Source: an uncultured virus (IMG/VR IMGVR_UViG_3300000116_000008)
Lineage: Duplodnaviria > Heunggongvirae > Uroviricota > Caudoviricetes
DNA length: 20,000 nt
Direction: 5' to 3' (one strand)
IMG/VR virus record: IMGVR_UViG_3300000116_000008
Part shown: positions 1 to 20,000 of the stretch, in pieces
How positions within the stretch are numbered: the stretch's first letter is position 1
Layout of the letters: every line of letters begins with the position of its first letter
Position numbers and translations under genes: made by a program
Notes under the pieces: generated by a model
Seen by the model: the letters and a program-made list of their open reading frames with translations, nothing else
The model's database searches: none
Told to the model about the DNA's origin: nothing

Positions 1-189
1 TTTAAAAAGAATTTTCCTTTTTTACAAGACGTTAATGAGTGTTTTACCGTACTTCTCCGAAACAATAATCAAAATATTTCAGAACATAGTATGGCTAGCG
101 GGTTTGGTTCACATTATGATGAAGAAGCTCTTAAATGGTTTGCTAATTATTTACACAAGTATATAAAGTCAAATAATCTTTTACCTTGA
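1..189 (+). CDS. 3' end of a hypothetical protein (possibly SGNH-like C-terminus), truncated by window edge
   Basis: Frame 1 is open from base 1 to TGA 187-189: ...GFGSHYDEEALKWFANYLHKYIKSNNLLP*. Confidence 0.55.
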   Translation, partial: FKKNFPFLQDVNECFTVLLRNNNQNISEHSMASGFGSHYDEEALKWFANYLHKYIKSNNLLP

Positions 190-233
190 TTTATAGTCTT
201 TATTTTGCTATATTATTATTTTAGGAGGTTAAT

Positions 234-470
234 TTGGCACAATATGTAGTAAGACAAGGGAGATGGTCTAATGAAGTTACAAAATTTGATGACTCTAGGG
301 AGCCTATCGATGTATATACCTTTAATCACAGGGGATGTGGTTGTCCTGCTTGGACTCGTAATTGTAAACACGTAAAAATAGTAAAGGCTTGGGAAAAAGC
401 TGGTAAACCGTTAGGTTCAGTTTTTGACGATAGTGCTAAGATGATTGGGAATATTTTCATTAATGAGTAA
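234..470 (+). CDS. SWIM zinc-finger protein
   Basis: CxC...CKH motif (CGCPAWTRNCKH); TTG start after AGGAGG; promoter TTGATT-17-TATATT at 186-214. Confidence 0.75.
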   Translation: MAQYVVRQGRWSNEVTKFDDSREPIDVYTFNHRGCGCPAWTRNCKHVKIVKAWEKAGKPLGSVFDDSAKMIGNIFINE

Positions 471-1221
471 AACATTACTTTTAAATGATTCAACTCACTA
501 CCATCATGGCTGTGCAAAAGTAATAGAAACATTCACTTTTGATCACAGTATTGCGACTAATAGATCTATTAATGTAAATTTTTCAGATTATTCTACAGTA
601 ATTCTAAATGGTGAGGGTACTATGCACCATAATAGGAATACTGCATTGAAGTTTTTACAAGCACTAAAGGACGCTTATTTAGCTAAGTGTGATGTTCAAT
701 TAGTCAATACTGTTTGGCAAGATATGACAAATGATTATGACGATGTTCTAGCTAAATGTAGCCTTATTCAAGTAAGAGATACTATTTCACAACAAGAGCT
801 TAAAAATAGACATGGTATTGATAGTGATATAGTTCCAGACAGAAGTATTATACCGTATGTTCCTTTTCAGGACTATCCCCCTGTAAATGTTTATCAAGGC
901 AATCGTTTTGATAGTAAGGTAGAATCATTTAAGTTAGGATGTCCTAAGATTAACATTTTTAAAGAAGACTGGAATAGTATAGTTAATAGGCTGAGACACG
1001 CAAAGCTATTAGTTACAGGAAGGCATCACGAAGCATATGCAGCAATTAAAGCTGAGTGTGAATTTATATTATTACCAGGTAATACACATAAAAATGAAGG
1101 AATTTATTTAAACGCTGGAGTTTCTCCTATAAACTCGATTGATGATATAGAAGATGTTTTATCTGGTGAGTATACTAGAGAATTTAATAGGATATTTGAG
1201 TATTATGGAAAAAGTATTTAG
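463..1221 (+). CDS. Polysaccharide pyruvyl transferase-like protein
   Basis: Motifs NDS.HYHHG, NGEGTMHH, VRD, VPD, VTGRHH; likely start MSK at 463 coupled to the upstream stop. Confidence 0.65.
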   Translation: MSKTLLLNDSTHYHHGCAKVIETFTFDHSIATNRSINVNFSDYSTVILNGEGTMHHNRNTALKFLQALKDAYLAKCDVQLVNTVWQDMTNDYDDVLAKCSLIQVRDTISQQELKNRHGIDSDIVPDRSIIPYVPFQDYPPVNVYQGNRFDSKVESFKLGCPKINIFKEDWNSIVNRLRHAKLLVTGRHHEAYAAIKAECEFILLPGNTHKNEGIYLNAGVSPINSIDDIEDVLSGEYTREFNRIFEYYGKSI

Positions 1222-1585
1222 AGATTGGGGTTGGTGGAGCGTATTAGCAGAATACGATAAATCTTGTAAGATTAAAGAGTTAGTTGTCAAACCAAAGACT
1301 AAGCTTTCTTGGCAAAGACATAATTTTAGAAGTGAAGTATGGTTTGTTAGAAAAGGAACTGCTACAATCTACTATAGTGACGATAGGGAAGGATTAAAAA
1401 ATGTTTTTAAAGATACAAAAGTCGAAAAGCAAACTCATCGGATCTCACGATACCAGTGGCATTGCTTGGCTAACGAAACTAATGAAGAAGTGTCTGTTAT
1501 TGAAATTCAGTTTGGCGATGATTGTCGTGAGTCCGACATCATACGCAAGCAGCTTCCACAAGGAAGTTACCTGTTTGGCAACTAA
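1205..1585 (+). CDS. Cupin, mannose-6-phosphate isomerase type II C-terminal-like
   Basis: R.WG.W, LSWQRH..RSEVW, WH.L.N, IEIQFG..C.ESDIIR motifs. Confidence 0.8.
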   Translation: MEKVFRDWGWWSVLAEYDKSCKIKELVVKPKTKLSWQRHNFRSEVWFVRKGTATIYYSDDREGLKNVFKDTKVEKQTHRISRYQWHCLANETNEEVSVIEIQFGDDCRESDIIRKQLPQGSYLFGN

Positions 1586-1991
1586 TATTTACTGGGAAGC
1601 TCGAAATCAAACGGTATCTGGTATGCTAGGGGTCGGAATGGTAACTCGTAATAGAGTCAAGCGACAGACTTTTCCTAACACGTATTGTGGAGTTGTATAC
1701 GAAGCTAAGATGAGTAAGTGGTGGAAAACTGAACACAATAAAGATGTACCTGTAAGAAATAGATGTCAGTTTAGTTGGTACTGTGATGGTACATCTGACA
1801 AAGTACCTGCCTATGATCGTGAAGTTTGGGAAGTAGCAGTTTATTTAGCACGAGGAATATATAATGGTAGATATACTGATAATACTTTTGGTGCTACACA
1901 TTATCATGCTTACTATGTGTCACCTAAATGGGCAAAGCAATTTAGACATACTACTACTATTGATGATCACATTTTTTATAGATATGATTAA
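1482..1991 (+). CDS. Cell wall hydrolase, SleB/Hydrolase_2 family
   Basis: CLA.NIY.EARNQ, V..NRV....FPNT.C.VV, CQFSW.CDG, GATHYHA.YV.P.WA, I..HIFY; signal-peptide-like N-terminus from ATG 1482. Confidence 0.9.
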   Translation: MKKCLLLKFSLAMIVVSPTSYASSFHKEVTCLATNIYWEARNQTVSGMLGVGMVTRNRVKRQTFPNTYCGVVYEAKMSKWWKTEHNKDVPVRNRCQFSWYCDGTSDKVPAYDREVWEVAVYLARGIYNGRYTDNTFGATHYHAYYVSPKWAKQFRHTTTIDDHIFYRYD

Positions 1992-2106
1992 TGTGGGAAA
2001 ACAGATTTCAGTGTAATGAGTTTACTGACTTTACAGATTCTGATGTATAGTCCTCTACTCTTTCAAAATATACTTGCATAACTCTTAATTTTTGAATATA
2101 CTATAT

Positions 2107-2164
2107 ATGTAGATGCTCAAAAGAGGTCTACATAATTAAACTTGCTTAATAATAGGAGAAAATA
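2107..2164 (+). promoter_or_regulatory. hsp20 5' leader: stable hairpin plus ROSE-like RNA thermometer
   Basis: Hairpin ATGTAGATGCTC-AAAA-GAGGTCTACAT (2107-2133); CTTGCT (2141-2146) can pair with SD AGGAG (2154-2158) with a bulged G; promoter TTGCAT-17-TATACT just upstream. Confidence 0.6.
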
Positions 2165-2581
2165 ATGACTTTAACTAGTACATTCGCTTTTCCAAGAAGT
2201 GCGTTTCTTGGATTCGACCATATATTTGACGAACTTAATAATATTCGTTTACACGCACACGACGGATACCCACCACATAACGTAATTAAAACTGGAGAGA
2301 AGACTTACACAATTGAACTTGCTGTTGCAGGATTCAAAAAGTCTGATTTGAAAGTTGATATTAAAGATCATGTACTAACAATTGGAGGAGAGCGTGCACA
2401 ACGTAGACCTGCAGAAGATTACGTACATCGTGGTTTGAGTACCCGAAAGTTCTCAAAATCATATAGACTTTCCGAATACACAGAAGTCGTTGGAGCTGAC
2501 CTAAACGATGGTATATTGACTGTCAACTTAGAAGTAATTGTTCCACAGGAAAAACTTCCGAAGGCAATATCTATCAAATAG
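2165..2581 (+). CDS. hsp20: Small heat shock protein Hsp20 (IbpA-like)
   Basis: FLGFD..F, YPPHNVI, Y.IELAVAGF, YVHRGLSTRKF, V.GADL.DGIL.V.L. Confidence 0.95.
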   Translation: MTLTSTFAFPRSAFLGFDHIFDELNNIRLHAHDGYPPHNVIKTGEKTYTIELAVAGFKKSDLKVDIKDHVLTIGGERAQRRPAEDYVHRGLSTRKFSKSYRLSEYTEVVGADLNDGILTVNLEVIVPQEKLPKAISIK

Positions 2582-2625
2582 TGTTGGTGTCTCTTTAAAT
2601 AAAACTTAATTTAAGGAGAAATGAT

Positions 2626-2853
2626 ATGACAACTATGTCTATAACTGCATTTACTTGCAGTGCATGCGAAAAAATCGCAACTATGTTTAACAATCTTTTT
2701 AGAAAAGTACGATTTGGAATGCAGATGTCTGCAAACCAAAGAGTCGCTAGAGAGTTAATCCACTTAGGCTTTCATCAGCAAAAAGAGTTTAACCAGCTTC
2801 TACAAAGAATGAACGATCAAGCTATAGAAGAATACTATGACAACAAGAAGTAG
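2626..2853 (+). CDS. Hypothetical protein
   Basis: ORF with AAGGAG RBS directly after hsp20. Confidence 0.7.
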   Translation: MTTMSITAFTCSACEKIATMFNNLFRKVRFGMQMSANQRVARELIHLGFHQQKEFNQLLQRMNDQAIEEYYDNKK

Positions 2854-2910
2854 TATCTGATGTGGCCTTATACTGAAGATGAGAACGACTTCTTATCTAA
2901 ATAAAAAAGC

Positions 2911-2941
2911 GAATGGGGGCTATGATTGTAGCTCCCTTCTT
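2911..2941 (+). terminator. Probable intrinsic terminator of the hsp20 unit
   Basis: GGGGGCTA-TGATTG-TAGCTCCC stem followed by TTCTT; overlaps the -35 of the next promoter (TTGCAT-17-TATTAT, 2940-2968). Confidence 0.55.
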
Positions 2942-2998
2942 GCATTATACCCCAAAATATTGTATTATAAGTTATAAATTTTTAAAAGGAGAATTATT

Positions 2999-3202
2999 AT
3001 GACTAAAGGCGAAATAAATTTTGCAATAAGACCTGACTACAATCAGGAATCTACAGACGCAACTTCCGTAGTACCTGAGATTGACTACAAATTTTCTTTT
3101 GATCACTCTCAAGGTCTTCAACTTAGTATTCAAGAGATTGATTATCATTTTAATAAATGGTTACTATCTTTAGGTTATGAGAGAAAAGGATCTAGTCAAT
3201 GA
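2999..3202 (+). CDS. Hypothetical protein
   Basis: ORF with AAGGAG RBS after a promoter. Confidence 0.65.
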   Translation: MTKGEINFAIRPDYNQESTDATSVVPEIDYKFSFDHSQGLQLSIQEIDYHFNKWLLSLGYERKGSSQ

Positions 3203-3429
3203 AAATAGGAGATCAAATACTCAAAGCAGCTTTACTACAAGCTAAAGGTCAAGTAGAAGTACATAAAACTAACATTTTAGTTTATCAAAATATGCCAGCA
3301 GGTATTGGAGAGCATAGTGATGTTACTGAAGCAGTTATTTCTGAATTAGATAAGCTGGCTTCAGCTAATGATAGAATTGATATGTTAAGATACTACTTTG
3401 ACATAGAAGATGAACATGACTTTGAATAA
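3199..3429 (+). CDS. Hypothetical phage protein (GIGEH motif)
   Basis: ATGA overlap; PAGIGEHSD motif typical of a small marine-phage protein family. Confidence 0.75.
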   Translation: MKIGDQILKAALLQAKGQVEVHKTNILVYQNMPAGIGEHSDVTEAVISELDKLASANDRIDMLRYYFDIEDEHDFE

Positions 3430-3455
3430 ACTATTGGCTTAGATACTAAATATAA

Positions 3456-3529
3456 AGGGGATAAGTGTTATGGTAGCACGGCAGGCTCCAACCCTGTAAG
3501 CGTGGGTTCGACTCCTACATCCCTTGCCA
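3456..3529 (+). tRNA. tRNA-Trp (CCA)
   Basis: Acceptor AGGGGAT/ATCCCTT, G discriminator, encoded CCA end; anticodon arm GCAGG-CTCCAAC-CCTGT; T-loop TTCGACT. Confidence 0.92.
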
Positions 3530-3550
3530 ATTTTTAGGAGGACAATTATA

Positions 3551-3775
3551 ATGTATGCGATAAAATGTACACCAAGCAAGTATAACCCAAATGATTGGTA
3601 TTTACTCAGAGATTTAAATGATTATGTTGTTCATGTGTGGACAAGAGAATCTGAAGTAAAAAAGTTACTTGCTGAATTGAAAAATAATACTCTTGAGATA
3701 ACACAAGATATCCCTCGATTGGCTCTTGAAAGGGCAACGGCTAAAAAAAGAGCAAAATTGACTGAAAAGGAGTGA
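3551..3775 (+). CDS. Hypothetical protein
   Basis: AGGAGG RBS then ATG 3551; the track's TTG start lies inside the tRNA. Confidence 0.7.
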   Translation: MYAIKCTPSKYNPNDWYLLRDLNDYVVHVWTRESEVKKLLAELKNNTLEITQDIPRLALERATAKKRAKLTEKE

Positions 3776-3777
3776 AG

Positions 3778-4185
3778 ATGAATAAATTAATTAGTTTAAC
3801 AACTATTGGAATCGTAACCTGTTTTGTGAGCACTGCTAATGCAACACAACCTCATTCTGCAAAAGTTAGTGATCATTACAAAGCAGTTATAGTAAAGATA
3901 CCAACAGATTATGAAGTATGCACAAAAGGTAACGGTAAAACAGATTTAGAGAATTTTATTACAGGAGGTATTGTTGGTGGAGTGATTGGTAACAATATTC
4001 CTGGAGAAAAAGGGGGCGGAGCATTGGGTGCTATACTAGGCGGAGCATTAAACGCTGAAGCTAATAAAGGCATAAAATGTACAAAGCACACTCATTATGA
4101 AAAAAAGATGGAAACTATTTACTCACACAGCACTATAACCTTTACTTATGATGGTAGAAGTTATACTGTAAGATTTACAAAGTAG
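3778..4185 (+). CDS. Glycine-zipper domain envelope protein
   Basis: Signal-like N-terminus; GGIVGGVIG...GGALGAILGG glycine zipper. Confidence 0.7.
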   Translation: MNKLISLTTIGIVTCFVSTANATQPHSAKVSDHYKAVIVKIPTDYEVCTKGNGKTDLENFITGGIVGGVIGNNIPGEKGGGALGAILGGALNAEANKGIKCTKHTHYEKKMETIYSHSTITFTYDGRSYTVRFTK

Positions 4186-4261
4186 GTCTCGTAGCTCAAC
4201 TGGACAGAGTATCGGTCTACGAAACCGAGGGTTGCAGGTTCGAATCCTGCCGAGATCACCA
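4185..4261 (+). tRNA. tRNA-Arg (ACG)
   Basis: Acceptor GGTCTCG/CGAGATC-ACCA; D arm GCTC-AACTGGACA-GAGT; anticodon arm TCGGT-CTACGAA-ACCGA; T-loop TTCGAAT. Confidence 0.95.
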
Positions 4262-4281
4262 AATTAAGGAGAGAGAACTAA

Positions 4282-4776
4282 ATGCATAGAATATCTGCAT
4301 ATTGGAAAGATAAAACTATAGTTAGGTTATTCAGATGTGTTTACGACGCTATTGACTTTAAAGATATTATGGATGCAAATTATCCTGATAAAGTAAAATT
4401 CGAAAAAGGAGTATTTTCAATGAGAGAATGGACATATGATATGTGGAATGTTATTATGGATAGTAAGCATAATCCACTACGGAATATCCCAGATTTGCAA
4501 GTTAGGCACCTGGTTATGCAAGTGTTGGCATGGATGTGGTGTATCACATTTTCTATGTATTTTAGTTCTATGTGGATGTTTGGCATTACTGCTATTGCAC
4601 ATGCAATACTAATAGCAGCTATAGTTGTTACAGTTTCTACTTTTACTACAGCTAGTTTAAATCCTATATTTTTTATAAAAAAAGGTTATCATACACCAAG
4701 TAGAACTAGAGCGCTATATTATAACGGAAAAAGAATTGAACTCGATGCAAACGACCCTGGAGGCGAGCACGATTAA
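4282..4776 (+). CDS. Hypothetical membrane protein (possible internal start at 4420)
   Basis: AAGGAG RBS; two hydrophobic helices; NPLRNIPDLQVRH.VMQVLAWMW motif. Confidence 0.7.
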   Translation: MHRISAYWKDKTIVRLFRCVYDAIDFKDIMDANYPDKVKFEKGVFSMREWTYDMWNVIMDSKHNPLRNIPDLQVRHLVMQVLAWMWCITFSMYFSSMWMFGITAIAHAILIAAIVVTVSTFTTASLNPIFFIKKGYHTPSRTRALYYNGKRIELDANDPGGEHD

Positions 4777-4785
4777 GGAGAGCAA

Positions 4786-4938
4786 ATGTTAGGAAGATTA
4801 ATTGAATACACCCGTACCACAACTTATCAACACAAACCAAGGAGAAAGTATATGACACCGAACCCACACTATATTAATATGATGATTAATATTGGTATAT
4901 TCGCTATGTTAGTTTACGTTGCTATACAAGTTAGTTAA
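4786..4938 (+). CDS. Small hypothetical membrane protein (50 aa)
   Basis: AAGGAG RBS, C-terminal hydrophobic stretch; below ORF-track cutoff. Confidence 0.5.
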   Translation: MLGRLIEYTRTTTYQHKPRRKYMTPNPHYINMMINIGIFAMLVYVAIQVS

Positions 4939-4950
4939 AGGAGAACATCA

Positions 4951-5148
4951 ATGTTTTATGATATTGATAAACTAAACGACTTAGAAAAAACTGTGAGTGA
5001 TAATTTAGCCTCAGCTGATAATCATACACAACATAATGACCATAAAACACATTGGATTAACTATCGAACTGATATGCCTAATTGTTTAATGGTTATTAGA
5101 GAATATAAAGAATTACTACGACAACTTAACTTAAGAAAGGAAAACTAA
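4951..5148 (+). CDS. Hypothetical protein
   Basis: AAGGAG RBS, operon packing. Confidence 0.65.
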   Translation: MFYDIDKLNDLEKTVSDNLASADNHTQHNDHKTHWINYRTDMPNCLMVIREYKELLRQLNLRKEN

Positions 5149-5333
5149 TGGGAATTATTATATTAGCACTAGGTATGTTCAGCATGGACACACAAGAATT
5201 TAGAGAAACTGCTAATCAGCAAGTAAAAGAAGGATACAAATGGACTTATGTCGGTAAGCAAGCACCATCAGGAGTTCCAGCTATCACTCTAAAGTCAAAT
5301 GGCGATGAATATATACTTTGGAAATTAAAGTAA
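5148..5333 (+). CDS. Hypothetical protein
   Basis: TAATG overlap, N-terminal hydrophobic segment. Confidence 0.6.
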   Translation: MGIIILALGMFSMDTQEFRETANQQVKEGYKWTYVGKQAPSGVPAITLKSNGDEYILWKLK

Positions 5334-5557
5334 TGACAGTAACATACATGACTGATGGTTCACCTAAATCTTGGGATAAAAAGCTACGTACTTATGAAGT
5401 AACTTATCCCAGTGGTCAGAAAGTGTTTTGGAAAGACTATACTGCTCGTGATGCGCTAACTAAGTATGATGGTCACAACTCTATGTATAATTATGAATTA
5501 AAAATCCGAGAGATCGAAGGTAAAGAACTTGCCTTAAAAAAGATTATGGATAAGTGA
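5333..5557 (+). CDS. Hypothetical protein
   Basis: TAATG overlap gives start MTVTY. Confidence 0.6.
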   Translation: MTVTYMTDGSPKSWDKKLRTYEVTYPSGQKVFWKDYTARDALTKYDGHNSMYNYELKIREIEGKELALKKIMDK

Positions 5558-5635
5558 TAGCAAACCTACTTTGTGCTTATCAAATGGTTATTTTTTGTGT
5601 ATTATATAAATAACAATCAAAAATAGGAGATTTTA

Positions 5636-5782
5636 ATGGCAACTAACATTGTACTTTATGGCGTAGCTGCAGCAGCACTTATACTAACTTTCATGGCTAC
5701 TAATGAGTTAGAAAATAGATTTGTAGAAATTGAGAAACAAATTGAAATTCAAAATACTATCATTGATAAACTAAGAAAGTAG
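5636..5782 (+). CDS. Small TM + coiled-coil protein (48 aa)
   Basis: AGGAG RBS; MATNIVLYGVAAAALILTF... Confidence 0.55.
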   Translation: MATNIVLYGVAAAALILTFMATNELENRFVEIEKQIEIQNTIIDKLRK

Positions 5783-5789
5783 GTGAAGC

Positions 5790-5954
5790 ATGGATAATTT
5801 GCAAGAAAAACTACAAGAAACTATTCAAGAGTTAAAAGAAGTCATGGAAGCTCGTAAAGCTAAGATGGACGACCTTAAACGAGAAATTGAAGAGCTTGAA
5901 GAAGAAAATGTCGCATTAGAAGAAAGCATTAAAGGAATCTTAGATGACTTCTAA
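5790..5954 (+). CDS. Small coiled-coil protein (54 aa)
   Basis: AGGTG RBS; E/K/L heptads. Confidence 0.55.
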   Translation: MDNLQEKLQETIQELKEVMEARKAKMDDLKREIEELEEENVALEESIKGILDDF

Positions 5955-6582
5955 TGAACCACATGATATGGCTAAAAGTTGGCTTGAGTGGTTAAAGCAT
6001 AATCCTGACCCTGCAAGTTACCTATCTCCTGACGACTGGAGAACTCAAGCTAACATCTGGATTGACTTAGGCTATTCTTGTGTGAAAACACCATTACTAC
6101 CTAAATATCAGTATCATATTATAGATCGTTGCTTGCGTGGAGCTTCTGACATTATATCTTGTGAGACTACCGCAGTTCATTCAAACACCTCTAGTTTAAT
6201 ACAATGGTGTAAACAATGGAGTAGGGGAGCAGTTCAAGAGTATGCACAACTATTTGAAGTACTCAAAGAGGATCGTGCAGGAAAGCCGCCAACTCATCGC
6301 CAGGTGTGTGAGTCGAGAGATGCTAGCAGAAAACGACACTTCACTGCAGAACATCAGTTCCCCATCATGATACCTAAAAAAGGCATTCGTGATAGAGGAT
6401 GGACACTAGAAAAGGCTCGCAATTGGATGTGGCAACACTCTAAGGTCACGATAGTTACTCAAGCAGAAAATAAACGACTCCTACCTTTCACAGAGGATAT
6501 GGAGATAGCGAGTAAAAGATATTCAGATGCAGACATTGAGATTTGTATCCACCCTAAATATTTGGCTGACGACAATGTTTAA
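5944..6582 (+). CDS. Hypothetical protein, possible His-Me/HNH-like nuclease fold
   Basis: AEHQFP ... VTIVTQAENKRL pattern. Confidence 0.45.
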   Translation: MTSNEPHDMAKSWLEWLKHNPDPASYLSPDDWRTQANIWIDLGYSCVKTPLLPKYQYHIIDRCLRGASDIISCETTAVHSNTSSLIQWCKQWSRGAVQEYAQLFEVLKEDRAGKPPTHRQVCESRDASRKRHFTAEHQFPIMIPKKGIRDRGWTLEKARNWMWQHSKVTIVTQAENKRLLPFTEDMEIASKRYSDADIEICIHPKYLADDNV

Positions 6583-6787
6583 GAATAAAACTGCCTGTGC
6601 AGCACTAGACGCGTATTATATTCAGCACAATGTAGCAGACTTTCAATATGAAGGTATGAGCGGTAAAGCTGCGTTTGAACTCTATTGTATACATAACGAC
6701 GAGTTCCTTCTTGAGTTACTTTGTGCTTATCTTGACCTAGTCAATAATATTAAAGCTATATACCCCGCTGTACCACAGAGCGTTTAA
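6575..6787 (+). CDS. Hypothetical protein
   Basis: Overlapping start MFKN, operon packing. Confidence 0.5.
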   Translation: MFKNKTACAALDAYYIQHNVADFQYEGMSGKAAFELYCIHNDEFLLELLCAYLDLVNNIKAIYPAVPQSV

Positions 6788-7134
6788 TGACCTTATTTTT
6801 TATACTACTTCTCAAACATGCAATTGTAGACTTAGGCGTACAATCTCACTTTTCTGGATTACGTAAGCAGGCATATATCAGTAATGCACACATACATTAT
6901 CTGCATCACGGAATATCAACTCTGCTCATTGCAGCATTCTTTGTAGACCCCCTCCTTGCAGTAGCTTGTGCTATTATTGATTATCTAGCACACTGGCATA
7001 TAGACTGGGGAAAGCATCGTATTAATACAGCTTTTAGCATTAAAAGTCGATCTCGTTTATGGTGGTGGACAAATTCAGTTGACCAGCTACTTCATTTTGT
7101 TACTTATTACATTATTGTTCTCATAGGAGTATAA
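6787..7134 (+). CDS. DUF3307-like membrane protein
   Basis: KH..VD..VQ, H..HHG, HWHIDW.K, DQLLH motifs in hydrophobic helices. Confidence 0.8.
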   Translation: MTLFFILLLKHAIVDLGVQSHFSGLRKQAYISNAHIHYLHHGISTLLIAAFFVDPLLAVACAIIDYLAHWHIDWGKHRINTAFSIKSRSRLWWWTNSVDQLLHFVTYYIIVLIGV

Positions 7135-7135
7135 C

Positions 7136-7543
7136 ATGGTTACAGGACATGATATCTATCGTCATTTTAACCTCAAAACAACTCAAGATTTATTTGGAGT
7201 GTATATAGGTTGGCAACAGATACGACTATATCGAGCGCCCTTAAAGATTGGGCGTAGTAAAAATGCAGCAGCCATACAACGTGGTAGAGCGCAAGGAGGA
7301 GCTGACTGGTGGTTTTCTTCTTATTTTTTACTACCTGACAATGAAGCTACCTACATTGTAGAACGACAGATCAAATCACAACTAAAACAATATAACATCA
7401 AAGGTACCCAACGACAAACAGAATTGTATATCCTAGATGCTGAAGAAGCAAAGCATCAGATTAGAGCAATCCTAACTCAACTCGGTTACGAAGTTATAGA
7501 TATTGTCCCAGAAGTTAAAAATTTACACATTGCACACTCTTAA
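7136..7543 (+). CDS. GIY-YIG/T5orf172-like nuclease domain protein
   Basis: GVYI...LKIGRS...R..Q ... VERQI ... TELY pattern. Confidence 0.55.
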   Translation: MVTGHDIYRHFNLKTTQDLFGVYIGWQQIRLYRAPLKIGRSKNAAAIQRGRAQGGADWWFSSYFLLPDNEATYIVERQIKSQLKQYNIKGTQRQTELYILDAEEAKHQIRAILTQLGYEVIDIVPEVKNLHIAHS

Positions 7544-11931: not shown

Positions 11932-12739
11932 ATTTTTTGATAAAAGACCTGCTGACATCAATAAACAAATAATTGATAGCTGGGAGGAGTCTAAACTCCA
12001 TCTTGATGCATTCTCTACTGATGAGATAAATCAATTGATTAAAATATTCAAAACTGCACCTAAAACAAATAATATGACCAAACAGAATAAAATGTTTGAT
12101 GATTTTTTAAATAGTGAAAGCGTTGATAAAACTATAACCCCAGGTTCAAGATTTGGACAAGGATCTGGAGCCTGCTCTGCTCCTGTGTGTTGGGACGAAG
12201 GTAGTAAAGAGATATTAGATCCTGTACTTAGAAGATATATTGGCGATTATAAAATAGTTGGTGGAACTTTTAACATTACTATGAATCCTTATCGATTACA
12301 TACTGATAGTGGCAGATTGAAAGAAACTAAAATCCACAAACAAATCATTATACCACTACACTGGGATAAGTCTCTTGATATATACAGTATACTATATGAT
12401 CAAAGATGGACAGGGTGCCAGGCTAGATTTCAACGAGGTATACCTACTACATCTGAAGAAAAATTTACTACATCTACTCACATGACTATAACTGACTATG
12501 AGAATAGTGAGATTCATAATTTAACTAATGCTTCGTTTGACAAGCGAATGTATGAGAGCCTTGTATCTCATATCAACTATGAGAGTTTGTGGGGATTTAG
12601 TGTAGAACTAGCTGCTAAATGGACTCCAAGATCCTTAATCGCTTATGATAGAAGTGTTATTCATAGTTCTTGTCATTTTGCTAGTAGTAAACTAAAAACT
12701 AAACTATTTATTACTTTAGTCACAGAACAAGCTGATTAA
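11924..12739 (+). CDS. Putative 2OG-Fe(II) oxygenase-fold protein
   Basis: LHTD (HxD), IIIPL, D...IHSS and K.FI pattern of a DSBH fold. Confidence 0.55.
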   Translation: MFEFFDKRPADINKQIIDSWEESKLHLDAFSTDEINQLIKIFKTAPKTNNMTKQNKMFDDFLNSESVDKTITPGSRFGQGSGACSAPVCWDEGSKEILDPVLRRYIGDYKIVGGTFNITMNPYRLHTDSGRLKETKIHKQIIIPLHWDKSLDIYSILYDQRWTGCQARFQRGIPTTSEEKFTTSTHMTITDYENSEIHNLTNASFDKRMYESLVSHINYESLWGFSVELAAKWTPRSLIAYDRSVIHSSCHFASSKLKTKLFITLVTEQAD

Positions 12740-12803
12740 TGCCATCATTATATTAAAATTTAATTTTTATGGCGGGGTAATTCGTAAAACTACCACTTTT
12801 CGA

Positions 12804-12832
12804 TTGCCCAAAGGCTAATTTTTTTATATTAT
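12804..12832 (+). promoter_or_regulatory. Sigma70-like promoter driving the non-coding region
   Basis: TTGCCC-17 nt-TATTAT, same type as other phage promoters here; no ORF downstream. Confidence 0.7.
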
Positions 12833-12838
12833 ATATTT

Positions 12839-13310
12839 ATAAAGATTGAAAGAGGCATCATCCTCTGGGCAACAGGGTTAGGTGGTAACGCCAAACGAGT
12901 TTGCGAAGTGTAAAACCAGGTAAATGATCCAACGGAGTCACGGAACGCGTCTCAGCCATCTCTCAACTTTATTGGGAAGTTGCACCCATTAATGCAATAG
13001 CAATCAGCTGAACGAGAGCTTAGAAATGGGCTTCAGTCGAGCCAAGTTATGGATGCGTAAGAGATACCGATGGGCGTTCCTCGAGGGGTCAGGGAGACAT
13101 CGTTAAAAACTCCCCCTTATTCTGTTGTTTCGGTAGGGATAACCAACTTAAAAAAACCCACCACAAAGAACACGGGTCAACCGATTGCCATAAGCTGAAC
13201 AGGAGTCAGGCGAGTACGCGGGATGTAAGATGACAGTAAGTTCACTTTCACGCTTAGCCACCTTTTGAAAATTTTACTCACGAAGATGCTTCGCACGATT
13301 GACCCCCATT
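12839..13310 (+). ncRNA. Putative structured ncRNA(s), three closed domains, unknown family
   Basis: Promoter-driven, no ORF, GC-enriched; closing helices 12839-44/12967-72, 12977-82/13144-49, 13174-80/13299-305; ends in T-tract. Confidence 0.65.
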
Positions 13311-13316
13311 TTTTGA

Positions 13317-13345
13317 TTGCTAACAGGTTTATTTTTTCGTATTAT
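13317..13345 (+). promoter_or_regulatory. Sigma70-like promoter
   Basis: TTGCTA-17-TATTAT. Confidence 0.7.
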
Positions 13346-13420
13346 ATTTATATAAGATAACAAGAGGGAAGGAAAATGCCTCACAACTATTTTCCAACTG
13401 ACTTTTTAAGAGGTGAATAT

Positions 13421-13738
13421 ATGTCAGCTACTACCCAGAAATCAGCGAATTATACTGCTGATATGGTCAATCAAATGACCGAAATGTATAATGAATTAGG
13501 CAATGATGGCATAGACCAGATTGCTGACACTCTCGGCAAGTCCGTAAGGTCTGTCAGAAGTAAACTCGTTCGCGAGGGTGTTTATGTAGCTAGTCCTAAG
13601 AAGACTGCTTCAAAACTAGAGGGTCCTTCTAAAAAAGAGATTCTCAGAGATATCGAGTCTAACGGCTTTGATGTGTCAGGTTTTGAGGGCGCCACGAAAG
13701 CGGCACTCACTAGATTAATGGGTGTAGTAGCTAACTAG
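13421..13738 (+). CDS. T5 A2/D3-like DNA-binding protein
   Basis: NY..E...M...Y, IA..LGKSVRSVRSKL.REGVY, LE.ATK..L pattern resembling T5 A2 (SVRSKL); GAGGTG RBS before ATG 13421. Confidence 0.7.
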   Translation: MSATTQKSANYTADMVNQMTEMYNELGNDGIDQIADTLGKSVRSVRSKLVREGVYVASPKKTASKLEGPSKKEILRDIESNGFDVSGFEGATKAALTRLMGVVAN

Positions 13739-13739
13739 C

Positions 13740-14490
13740 TACTCGCCAAGAGTTTCAGGAGGTGGAACTTATTAGCTCCACCTACTACTGCCATCTTCAC
13801 GATTATTTTATAATCGCATAGGGACGTCTAATAAGAGGAAGTGGCAACCTACCCATAGAGGTAAGAGCTATGGGGTGTTTAAGTACGCGACTTGACACAG
13901 TTGATTCTAGGGGACGGGTTCTCTGAAAACTAGAATCCATGCAGAGGAAAGCTGCGATGACAAATAAAACCCTGTGGTGACTTACACATTCCCAAAGTCG
14001 ATTGTCGGTTAGGCGCTAAGATTTCTAAATCCGACACACTGGCACCCTAAGGTCCCGCAGGTAACGAAAGTTCGTGGACCTAGGTAGTGCCAAAACTGAC
14101 TAGTCGCATGAGGCTATTCAGTAAGTTGAATAGGGGAGACACTGTCAAGTCTTCGGATAAGCACAGAGCCCTATTCATTAAACTCCGACCCTCGACACAA
14201 ACTATATGTTTGATGCTGGTAAGAACTGGAGTTGGGTAAAAGGCGATAGGCATTACGGTTACCTGCTCTGTCCTCTAACAGTCACTGTAAGAGAACATCA
14301 AAACGGACTTGTAATCGCCTTTTTACTTTCAGAGCTTGTCGTAGGCTCTTCTTCTGCAGAGGCGAAACTACGAGTCGGGAAGGGATTAATACAATGCGTA
14401 CCCTTAGTGAGTAGGCGAGGTTGGCGGCAACTCACAACATATTTTACTTTAAAGTTCAAGAAAGGAGCAGCGACGGTTGTTCCTTTCTTG
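13740..14490 (+). ncRNA. Putative large, multi-pseudoknotted ncRNA (~750 nt), unknown family
   Basis: More than 12 local hairpins plus several 7-9 bp long-range complementarities; GC-enriched; no credible ORF; ends at a strong hairpin. Confidence 0.75.
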
Positions 14491-14496
14491 CGTTTT
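14457..14496 (+). terminator. Terminal 15-bp hairpin, probable terminator
   Basis: CAAGAAAGGAGCAGC-GACG-GTTGTTCCTTTCTTG then CGTTTT; overlaps promoter TTGCGT-17-TATTAT (14488-14516). Confidence 0.65.
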
Positions 14497-14546
14497 AGCC
14501 TATTTTTTGATATTATATATACATAATTAAAAAAGGAGCAAAATGT

Positions 14547-15068
14547 ATGACAAACCAAGTATCACGAGATTATGAACCTCTTACTAGTTTAGCACAAAGA
14601 AACACTGAGGATTTAACAGTTGTTCTTGAAAATGAGCCTATCACAACACCTTATAGACGTTCCCAATTACCACAATGGACAATCAGAGATATAATTAAGT
14701 ATGATTATACTTATTACTTTGGGATAGCACTATGCTCAAGTTTAAAACCTACTCAACTTCAAGAAGAGTATGAAGAGTTTAGGACTCTACGTAAGATTCA
14801 TGAGTTAAAGCATGGAGTATTTGACCCTATTATAGTAGACTGTGATTACTTTATTATCTGCGGACACCACAGACATAAAGCGATAAAAGAGCATTATTCA
14901 TATAGCTATCGAACACCTATTATCTGTTTAGAAGGAGTTACCCATGGTTTGGTAACAAGCTTCTACGAGAGTTGTCAATTACATCTTCAAGGTCAACTAG
15001 ATGAGCAAGCAAGAGCAATTGAAGAGTATGATTATGGAAAACTACAAGCTGGAAAGGAAATATTATGA
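14547..15068 (+). CDS. ParB/sulfiredoxin-like N-terminal domain protein
   Basis: LKPTQ, PIIVD....ICGHHR..A motif; AAGGAG RBS. Confidence 0.7.
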   Translation: MTNQVSRDYEPLTSLAQRNTEDLTVVLENEPITTPYRRSQLPQWTIRDIIKYDYTYYFGIALCSSLKPTQLQEEYEEFRTLRKIHELKHGVFDPIIVDCDYFIICGHHRHKAIKEHYSYSYRTPIICLEGVTHGLVTSFYESCQLHLQGQLDEQARAIEEYDYGKLQAGKEIL

Positions 15069-15517
15069 TTTATTTTGCATCTGACCACGGAGGTTATAAG
15101 TTAAAAGAACGACTATTTATGAGACTATCTAAGGAAGGTTATTCAACCTATGATTTAGGTTGTGCAGGTACTCAAATTTCGTGTGATTATCCACTGTTTG
15201 CACAACGCTGTGCTAATGCTATGATCGAGGAGGGCGAAGGATTCGATCCAAATTCATTTGGTGTGCTAATTTGTGGAACTGGAATTGGTATTTCTATGGC
15301 TGCTAATCGTTATAGTCATATTAGAGCTGCTCTTTGTTTAAATCTTACTTATGCTCGACTAGCTCGTGAACACAATAATGCAAATGTACTTTGTTTGCCA
15401 GGTCGCTTTATGGAGTTTGAAGATGCCTACGCAATCTTACACACCTTTTTAAGTACTCAACCTTCTAAAGAAGCTAGACACGCAAGACGATTGGAGCTGA
15501 TGAATGCAATCAACTAA
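15065..15517 (+). CDS. rpiB: Ribose-5-phosphate isomerase B (RpiB/LacA/LacB family)
   Basis: SDHGG, DYP, ICGTGIG.SMAANR, IRAA, AREHNNANVL, RH.RR. Confidence 0.92.
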   Translation: MIYFASDHGGYKLKERLFMRLSKEGYSTYDLGCAGTQISCDYPLFAQRCANAMIEEGEGFDPNSFGVLICGTGIGISMAANRYSHIRAALCLNLTYARLAREHNNANVLCLPGRFMEFEDAYAILHTFLSTQPSKEARHARRLELMNAIN

Positions 15518-19357: not shown

Positions 19358-19657
19358 TTAGTTAGTGAAGTGGGCTAAAAGTCTAACTATAGCCTCTTTC
19401 GTTGCCCCCTCTAAACCTGCAACGTCAACACCGGTCTGCTCTAGGTCCTTAAGAAGTTCCTTCTTAGTTGGACCTAAGACCTTAGTTGATGTCGACTTTG
19501 GCTTAGCAACGTAGACACCTTCTCTAACTAACTTTGATCTTACTGACCTAACTGACTTACCAAGATCAGATGCGATATCGATAATGTCTGTGCCTGCTAA
19601 GTAGTCAGATGTGATTTTAGCAACTTGAGCTGCTGAGTAGTTTGGTGATTTAGTCAT
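19358..19657 (-). CDS. Second T5 A2-like DNA-binding protein (paralog of 13421-13738)
   Basis: Identical LGKSVRSVRSKLVREGVYVA core plus GP.KKE and EGATK; AGGGAG RBS before ATG 19657. Confidence 0.75.
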   Translation of the reverse strand: MTKSPNYSAAQVAKITSDYLAGTDIIDIASDLGKSVRSVRSKLVREGVYVAKPKSTSTKVLGPTKKELLKDLEQTGVDVAGLEGATKEAIVRLLAHFTN

Positions 19658-19691
19658 ATTTTCGTCTCCCTGTTTTTCTGATTGATAACTA

Positions 19692-19720
19692 TTTATACGA
19701 TATTTTAGAGCGAGAAGCAA
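19692..19720 (-). promoter_or_regulatory. Sigma70-like promoter for the minus-strand A2-like gene
   Basis: Minus strand TTGCTT-17-TATAAA. Confidence 0.7.
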
Positions 19721-19775
19721 GCGAAAAGTGAAAGTATGACTAACTTTTTTTTTACGTCTTAAAGTCATTTTACGC

Positions 19776-19805
19776 TTGACAACGGGCACCAAAGTATGGT
19801 ATAAT
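19776..19805 (+). promoter_or_regulatory. Consensus sigma70 promoter, divergent from the A2-like gene
   Basis: TTGACA-18-TGgTATAAT (extended -10). Confidence 0.8.
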
Positions 19806-20000
19806 AGTGGCGCTGCGCGCAAGACTCTTTAACTAGTTAACAATTGGCCGCTTCGCGGTAGGACTTCTACTTCGAATTGTCACTTTTTCACTGGCGCTAC
19901 GCGCCACTATAATCGACTTTTCACTTTACTACTGGTGCTGGGGAGCACTCTTTAATTGCGAATGCTAGTGCGACTCGTTATCATTCGCAGGGGGCCAAAA

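Follow-up and report, generated by a model that had tools for sequence, protein, structure and literature searches.

A gene for a highly structured non-coding RNA of about 740 nucleotides, carrying a shared three-hairpin 3' module, in an uncultured marine phage

Ornate large RNAs with no known job are rare. GOLLD and ROOL form multimeric RNA cages and their function is as yet unexplained; together with OLE and raiA, they have recently revealed unexpected architectures. The tRNA and prophage context of ROOL and GOLLD is noted in parts of PMC5737381, and there is also a cryo-EM preprint (10.1101/2024.12.08.627333) on such RNAs. In the crAss-like Cellulophaga phage phi14:2, as described in sections of another study, two gene-free stretches of ~690 nt (g004-g005 and g005-g006) flank a gene of ~105 aa (10.1101/2020.03.07.982082). 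The same sections describe these stretches as early long non-coding RNAs that are transcribed above most genes and persist late (10.1101/2020.03.07.982082).

Here we examine a locus in an uncultured, marine, AT-rich phage (GC ~0.33), using a stretch of 20,000 nt from its IMG/VR record (the window). The locus encodes a stable non-coding RNA of ~740 nt that is read from the + strand and is highly structured. This bears out the original prediction of a large phage non-coding RNA, as the stretch was found to be conserved, non-coding, read from the + strand and structured over ~740 nt. The RNA starts at or before a stop-codon hairpin of an upstream helix-turn-helix (HTH) gene and extends to an intrinsic terminator. 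A chain of ~20 conserved helices makes up the molecule, and its last 100 nt form a three-hairpin module. In other marine phages, this module is joined to very different RNA bodies, and the RNA is plentiful in ocean RNA samples of many studies.

Nearly all genes of the window lie on the + strand. The recognisable ones encode a DegT-type aminotransferase, RpiB, Hsp20, an endolysin, a DNA methylase and a thioesterase. Two tRNAs were found with ARAGORN and Rfam 15 (3456-3529 and 4185-4261), and the phage with the RNA thus also carries tRNA genes, a point on which the original likening to GOLLD and ROOL was supported. A related record, G001, overlaps the window at 1-7401 only and contributes radical-SAM, epimerase and ferredoxin genes; a search of this record for structural genes found none. 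When 53 ORFs of the window and G001 were scanned against PHROG, the result was limited to auxiliary metabolic genes, and structural and crAss hallmark genes were absent; no hallmark crAss gene was seen across the 54 kb examined. Neither the RNA (blastn) nor the upstream protein (tblastn) matched any of 50,697 phage records, cultured phages included. The RNA is also a marker of an uncultured large marine phage group that is absent from the phage reference collection.

The GC content is 0.45-0.46 over 13501-14400 compared to 0.33-0.36 in the flanks, and it is raised between the stop codon at 13736-13738 and the gene at 14547, as expected from the GC-enriched, ORF-poor stretch first noticed there. 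The RNA stretch (13740-14500) holds only short or overlapping ORFs. The 106-aa + strand ORF (14206-14526) has 4-7 stops in six of six relatives, and the other four ORFs tested are each broken in at least one relative. Since every ORF is broken in at least one relative, the stretch is non-coding. The minimum free energy of the + strand was -249.4 kcal/mol (z -5.98), which none of 20 shuffles equalled, versus z -3.49 for the minus strand. The stretch is therefore heavily folded, as had been claimed, and the ten local stems that were first proposed were all real and correctly placed. At 12 of the 168 consensus pairs described below, G-U is the commonest form, where the opposite strand would give A-C. 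These pairs and the direction of the terminator favour the + strand, which upholds the earlier argument from G-U pairs. Cumulative GC skew did not shift at the RNA stretch.

The gene directly upstream (13421-13738, +) encodes a 105-aa HTH protein assigned to the 'DNA binding protein' family phrog_1725. The listed ORF opens at 13376, and the ATG at 13421 agrees with the relatives. There are 12 close loci with this gene in IMG/VR and 51 by alignment-based search, and the protein is 74-83% identical to 11 aligned IMG/VR relatives. From a reading of its sequence, it is a putative sigma-region-4-like helix-turn-helix. A 154-aa ORF elsewhere in the window (19358-19822, -) is a weak paralogue of this gene (phrog_1725, E 2.6e-4), with a faint Sigma70_r4_2 match, and related contigs have two such paralogues apiece. 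A promoter scan found a promoter-like site, TGGTCA-17-TATAAT (10/12), inside the HTH gene at 13464-13492 (+), and this is a possible start of the RNA. The stop codon TAG (13736-13738) sits in the loop of a hairpin at 13726-13743 (+) that has the final codons of the gene as its 5' arm. Across orthologous loci, this hairpin persists through compensatory changes that are synonymous in the gene: GTAGTAGC/GCTACT, GTAGTGGC/GCCACT and GTAGTAGCC/GGCTACTAC.

At the other end, an intrinsic terminator at 14457-14499 (+) consists of a 16-pair hairpin (helix 27, with 2 compensatory pairs) followed by GCGTTTT. The terminator scan did not call the window's own tail at 14457-14499, which has too few T, and it did call the homologous hairpins of L160 and L170. 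A conserved promoter-like box, TTGATATTATATATACATAAT, and the ribosome-binding site of the next gene follow at 14504-14546 (+) in eight of eight aligned loci. The next gene starts at 14547, and the box and ribosome-binding site mark the end of the RNA unit. In L160 and L170, a 77-nt insert with a promoter-like site lies directly 5' of the RNA body, and a called terminator lies at its end. A box of the form TTTTYGATTGC ... TTTTTT.ATATTATAT.T.TA is repeated ahead of each unit in the window (12790-12835, 13310-13350 and 14497-14535) and is conserved in related loci too, so that it may represent a phage-specific class of promoter.

In the orthologous IMG/VR loci, 400-900 nt with no credible gene lie behind the HTH gene, and a conserved terminator hairpin, the promoter-like box and the next gene come after them. 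Only the very beginning and the final 130 nt of these non-coding stretches align to the window. A metagenome search with a pattern from the shared 3' part gave 28 loci. Among them, L171 is 99.9% identical to the window, and another six (L150, L149, L160, L170, L155 and L169) are diverged homologues, full or partial, of the RNA as a whole, with 75-88% identity. RNAalifold gave 168 consensus pairs, 20 of them changed on both sides, for the full-length alignment, which contains 7 sequences only and is the same alignment from which the consensus structure was derived. In a separate count over the 168 pairs, 96.8% of cells were paired, compared to 38-41% when partners were slid by 1-3 columns. The 20 compensatory pairs compare to 8.5 ± 2.0 in column shuffles, where none of 500 reached 20, and to 0-2 when partners were slid. 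The collection of homologs thus supported a conserved structure, with six diverged relatives and 168 pairs kept, 20 of them by compensatory change. Entire hairpins were inserted, lost or replaced between relatives. L149 and L160 have an insert of ~80 nt, the hairpin at 14004-14035 is absent from L150 and L170, and the P1 extension is shorter in L149, L160 and L169. Swaps of hairpin tips, inserts and deletions are the usual variation of structured RNAs.

The RNA begins with a series of hairpins, all on the + strand. H1 (AGGTGGA/TCCACCT, 13760-13783; helix 2) is 100% paired with 1 pair changed on both sides, and its loop has an insert of 20-30 nt in relatives. H2 (GCCATCTTC/GAAGTGGC, 13790-13845; helix 3), which contains an inner palindromic hairpin, and H3 (CCCATAG/CTATGGG, 13852-13874; helix 4) each have 2 pairs changed on both sides, and H4 (13875-13898; helix 5) has 3. 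As judged by complementarity, the H4 loop GTACGC (13883-13888) may kiss the loop of P2 in the 3' module (14396-14401). H5 (GATTCTAG/CTAGAATC, 13903-13937) was identified in the alignment by eye; in relatives it reads GTTCATAG/CTATGAAC, so that three positions are changed on both sides. For H6 (13941-13955) there is an alternative pairing of 13941-13948 with 14350-14357, which lie in the P1 extension loop. H7 is taken from the RNAalifold consensus and is followed by the invariant single strand TTCCCAAAGTC (13973-13999 together). A predicted pairing of UCCC (13990-13993) with GGGA (14377-14380) would close a 3' domain of 390 nt; this pairing (helix 9) is invariant in seven of seven sequences and, thus, can give no covariation signal.

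Within this domain, two hairpins at 14004-14035 and 14041-14091 comprise helices 10-13, and the second is capped by a GAAA loop in the window and by UUCG-type loops in relatives. The next hairpin (TGAATAGGG/CCCTATTCA, 14127-14177; helix 14) is 100% paired with 3 pairs changed on both sides. The most conserved core of the clade lies at 14181-14328, where helices 16-21 are nearly invariant, with 1 compensatory pair in helix 18. It is composed of an AACTCCG/TGGAGTT domain that encloses a CAAAC/GTTTG hairpin, plus a 17-pair helix, GGGTAAAAGGCGAT.../...ATCGCCTTTTTACTT.

Seven long-range pairings had been proposed to cross these helices, and all seven are complementary in the window itself. Most of them are not conserved: two have modest support, three are contradicted and two show no compensatory change. 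GCAGAGGA/TCTTCTGC is modestly supported, as both sides are changed at 3 of its 8 pairs among the four sequences in which the P1 extension is retained. For GTACGC/GCGTAC, the support is likewise modest, with six of six pairs in the window, L160 and L170, and 1 of 6 changed on both sides. The pairing GACTTGACA/TGTCAAGTC is perfect (9/9) in the window only, compared to 3-7 of 9 in the five relatives having both sides, and its 5' partner sits in the local hairpin with three compensatory pairs (helix 5). GCAGGTAAC/GTTACCTGC is also 9/9 in the window only and 3-5 of 9 in six relatives. TTTGATG/CATCAAA is outcompeted by the local CAAAC/GTTTG hairpin, which shows a compensatory A-U to U-A change in two sequences. 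No compensatory changes were found for CTCTGAAA/TTTCAGAG or ACAGAGC/GCTCTGT. When the four helices that are not contradicted were pooled, they were weakly above controls, and 8 of 500 shuffles reached their paired fraction. The two supported pairings would be loop-loop contacts that tie the 5' hairpins to the 3' module.

The three-hairpin 3' module (14335-14437, +) was modelled with the covariance model R1. P1 (14339-14344/14368-14373) is followed by the junction GAGUCGGG, then by P2 (14381-14384/14401-14404) and P3 (14407-14412/14430-14435), whose invariant loop, GGCGAGGTTGGCGGC, lies at 14414-14428. The two invariant elements of the module are the junction and the P3 loop, GGCGAGGUUGGYGGC. 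All 31 distinct sequences with the invariant words have the same three hairpins. The 6 pairs of P1 take forms that include UCGUAG/CUACGA, UCUCAG/CUGAGA, UCACAG/CUGUGA and UCGCAG/CUGCGA, and the stem of P3 varies around its constant loop. R1 found 38 loci at 52-88 bits among 91 sources, and L099, L100 and L103 are among them though they were unused in building the model. At 82.8 bits, the window falls within this range and is a member of the family. In 34 matches, 97.2% of cells were paired versus 76.3% in shuffles and at most 54% when slid, and 16 of the 19 pairs were changed on both sides (130 cells versus 30.5 ± 4.9); the alignment behind these counts was fitted to the model.

Four of the 28 pattern loci (L147, L158, L159 and L166) are probably chance, with 13-19 bits on R1, and were excluded from the module model and the pair counts. 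A pattern search of viral contigs with AGTNGGCGNGGTTGGNGGC gave 81 loci, 7 of which have an upstream GAGTCGGG and a stem of at least 7 pairs; the remainder are chance sites in GC-rich DNA. GTDB genomes contained at least 120 sites, mostly GC-rich chance, and none of the 80 scored among the matches listed exceeded 23.4 bits on R1, which is the ceiling for chance sites in GC-rich genomes bearing the invariant words. A search for a partner of the invariant loop with RNAduplex gave many candidates for G-rich loops and none consistent across clades. Pairing of the loop with a 5' CGCCAA was rejected, as it fails in L150, L160 and L170.

The module lies 138-886 nt from the stop codon of the upstream gene. 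In the clade of L005, it is present in L006 and L008 and missing in L005, L007 and L009; its position also differs between L008 and L023. In L148 and L162, a tRNA follows directly 3' of it. With its variable distance, patchy presence and tRNA neighbour, the module has the character of a portable domain.

A second RNA, likewise conserved and non-coding, was found 5' of the HTH gene in the segment 12782-13316; it runs at ~12838-13316 (+), ending at CCCCCATTTTTT (13303-13315), with a promoter-like box, TTGCCC-17-TATTAT, ahead of it (12804-12832, +). Its 5' domain (GAGGCAUCAUCCUC ... AAUGAUCCAACGGAGUCACGGAA ... GUCUCAGCC) is conserved in 12 diverse loci, and 7 of the 22 consensus pairs are compensatory. 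At its 39-nt core (12919-12957), RNA contigs reach a depth of 45-65. It has no Rfam match. The window copy is without the large middle part present in L010, L103 and L104, and its folding energy z-score was not significant. In L037 (700-1735) and L154 (305-1270), the 5' domain of this upstream RNA and the 3' module are found on one unit. The L037 unit, flanked by a strong promoter-like site and by a terminator that is also strong, is ~1,030 nt long; its only same-strand ORF of at least 50 aa has 51 aa and overlaps the module. This unit also has blocks in common with the downstream RNAs of L023, L005, L008 and L010. The fusion of 5' domain and 3' module in L037 and L154 places the two RNAs of the window in one set with exchangeable domains. 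The original prediction of a single self-contained RNA family was, therefore, not borne out, and the RNA is a mosaic member of a set that shares a 3' module. In L010, L012 and L013, the first part of the downstream RNA is followed by an inserted 284-aa ORF, ~300 nt 3' of the HTH gene, and a conserved 38-nt RNA block lies inside a 72-aa 'ORF' ahead of this insert.

Most of the stretch was present in 20 sequencing runs, including 12 metatranscriptomes under 11 study codes, and these 12 RNA runs contain 0.73-0.82 of the sampled words. Contigs were placed on 12500-15500 of the window in 30 bins. Three RNA runs from three studies gave contigs over 13520-14425 (X7, depth 8), 13676-14421 (X11, depth 16) and 13640-14466 (X15, depth 98), with single contigs of 658-906 nt spanning the RNA. 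These contigs miss the first 100-250 nt of the HTH gene. No RNA contig of X7, X11 or X15 fell on 14520-15226, and beyond 15226 a 38-base partial match (15270-15307) was seen in X7 only. In the DNA run X2, all 30 bins were covered and one contig bridges 13653-15040. DNA carry-over does not explain this contrast between the RNA runs and the DNA run. The RNA was thus assembled from RNA libraries and the neighbouring genes were not, in line with what a metatranscriptome check of the prediction should give. Contigs do not give true RNA ends, strand or level. In X11, adapter remnants at three contig ends have one orientation, as for a + strand RNA in a dUTP-type library, and this is a weak hint of the + strand. 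X11 also has a 118-nt piece (13676-13793) with adapters on both sides. No joints were seen in the RNA contigs.

The best explanation of the locus as a whole, to which we give a probability of about 0.5, is a stable structured non-coding RNA that acts in trans as a scaffold or decoy. It would be transcribed by read-through from the HTH gene or from a promoter inside that gene, and perhaps released by cutting at the stop-codon hairpin. Beside this proposed production stands the promoter-like site directly before the RNA in two relatives. By analogy to what has been proposed for GOLLD and ROOL, the RNA would then act in trans as a long-lived scaffold or decoy. The invariant module would be the site recognised by a conserved partner, such as a protein from host or phage, a different RNA or a further copy of itself, and the variable 5' hairpins would be docked onto the module through one or two loop-loop contacts. 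Most of the conserved helices are local and, thus, a string of separate units is equally possible; the HTH gene is syntenic in the orthologous loci and, thus, a role in cis would also fit.

The main rivals are that the RNA acts in cis as the tail of the HTH mRNA and that it is a precursor to several smaller RNAs. In the first case, the RNA would be a 3' UTR that blocks 3' exonucleases or controls translation or decay through the stop-codon hairpin. Gene and RNA are adjacent in all orthologous loci, the stop codon lies within a conserved hairpin and the RNA contigs begin inside the HTH gene (13520, 13640 and 13676). However, the contigs leave the first 100-250 nt of the gene uncovered, L160 and L170 have a promoter-like site between gene and RNA, and the module is also found on RNAs with their own promoter and no HTH gene ahead, such as that of L037. 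A length of ~740 nt and 20 helices are also far beyond the needs of a stabiliser, and we regard a cis role as unlikely. If the RNA were instead a precursor to be cut into a number of small structured RNAs, with every piece an independent and swappable module, this would agree with the chiefly local helices, with the gain, loss and exchange of entire hairpins among relatives, with the different placement of the module in L008 and L023, and with the adapter-flanked 118-nt piece (13676-13793) in X11. This explanation is slightly less probable still, since the RNA runs of three studies hold single contigs, 658-906 nt long, that cross the region, two long-range contacts show some covariation and the invariant UCCC/GGGA pairing would close a domain of 390 nt.

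Two further explanations have far less in their favour. The size, the ornate fold and the patchy distribution among related phages could suggest a ribozyme or intron-like mobile RNA that cleaves or splices itself. This is very unlikely because no intron, small-ribozyme or RNase P model matched at E up to 10, no host gene is split, the next gene has its own promoter and ribosome-binding site, and the RNA contigs show no joints. The region is mosaic between phages, as might be seen if the element worked at the level of DNA and its transcription were incidental, be it an origin of replication, a hotspot of recombination or a gene in decay. However, compensatory changes and G-U pairs are strand-specific signatures of RNA, the minus strand folds less well, the cumulative GC skew does not change, and the sequence is conserved though its ORFs are broken in relatives, which leaves such an element with almost no credence.

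The natural variation of the RNA is enough to support a structure, and the two strictly invariant elements point to where a partner should bind. At 100 nt, the module is small enough for pull-downs, structure work and tests for G-quadruplexes or ligands, and the shuffling of domains provides natural experiments. Abundance, variation and domain exchange make the role of such phage RNAs an approachable question.

As the original prediction had supposed, the RNA matches no Rfam 15 family. At gathering thresholds, Rfam 15 found only the two tRNAs in the window and nothing meaningful at E up to 10; in 40 related loci, Rfam found tRNAs only. The GOLLD, ROOL, OLE, HEARO and raiA models did not match the window at E up to 10, and neither did those for hammerhead, twister, pistol, hatchet, HDV-like ribozymes and RNase P. 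Group I and group II intron models had no Rfam match, and no split host gene was seen, as the upstream ORF ends like its relatives and the downstream gene has its own start signals. ARAGORN and RF00023 found no tmRNA in the window; the same tools detect one in phi14:2, which served as a positive control. No description of the RNA was found in the literature, in a search that took in parts of PMC5737381 and part of the supplements of PMC10690425.

Among described motifs, the marine metagenome RNA Ocean-VII (RF03092) has a hairpin, GAGGGGGAACA..CCCCUCAGA, that resembles P2 of the L152 module. Membership in that family was rejected, as 8.7 bits against a gathering score of 53.5 (E 5.5, over half the model) is at chance level. 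The structured-RNA candidates of Fremin et al. 2023 (PMC10690425) come from the same data source, and, in size and copy number, the 100-nt module is what a screen of this kind picks up, going by the accessible parts of that catalogue. In contrast to our RNA, the catalogued RNAs in those parts average 67 nt and have no function assigned. A search of the readable supplements of PMC10690425 for the motif words and for five contig numbers gave no match, and some overlap with that catalogue may still exist. As in phi14:2, the layout of the window is RNA, small gene, RNA. The layout alone is shared, however, with no likeness in sequence: no BLASTP alignment was found between phi14:2 and window proteins, and R1 scored at most 3.8 bits on phi14:2. 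In addition, g005-g006 of phi14:2 is a tmRNA according to ARAGORN and the window has none. This tmRNA (L294, NC_021806, 4031-4500; tag GSSVQKLAMVA*) scores 46 bits on the Rfam tmRNA model, which has a gathering score of 47, and the phage record is without such an annotation.

A bolder reading, which we consider doubtful and put below either of the main rivals, is that both RNAs of the window belong to an undescribed, ocean-wide superfamily of mosaic giant phage RNAs with a shuffled 5' domain A, the 38-nt block and the 3' module. Such RNAs would reach very high copy in infection, and the module would assemble with itself or capture a universal host component for takeover of the cell. If true, this superfamily would be a marine counterpart of GOLLD and ROOL. 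The RNA resembles GOLLD (RF01998) and ROOL (RF03087) in being hundreds of nt long, phage-borne and composed of many helices, with tRNA genes in the same genome or, in L148 and L162, directly beside it. It differs from them in having no match to their covariance models, in being marine and in being a mosaic with a shared 3' module.
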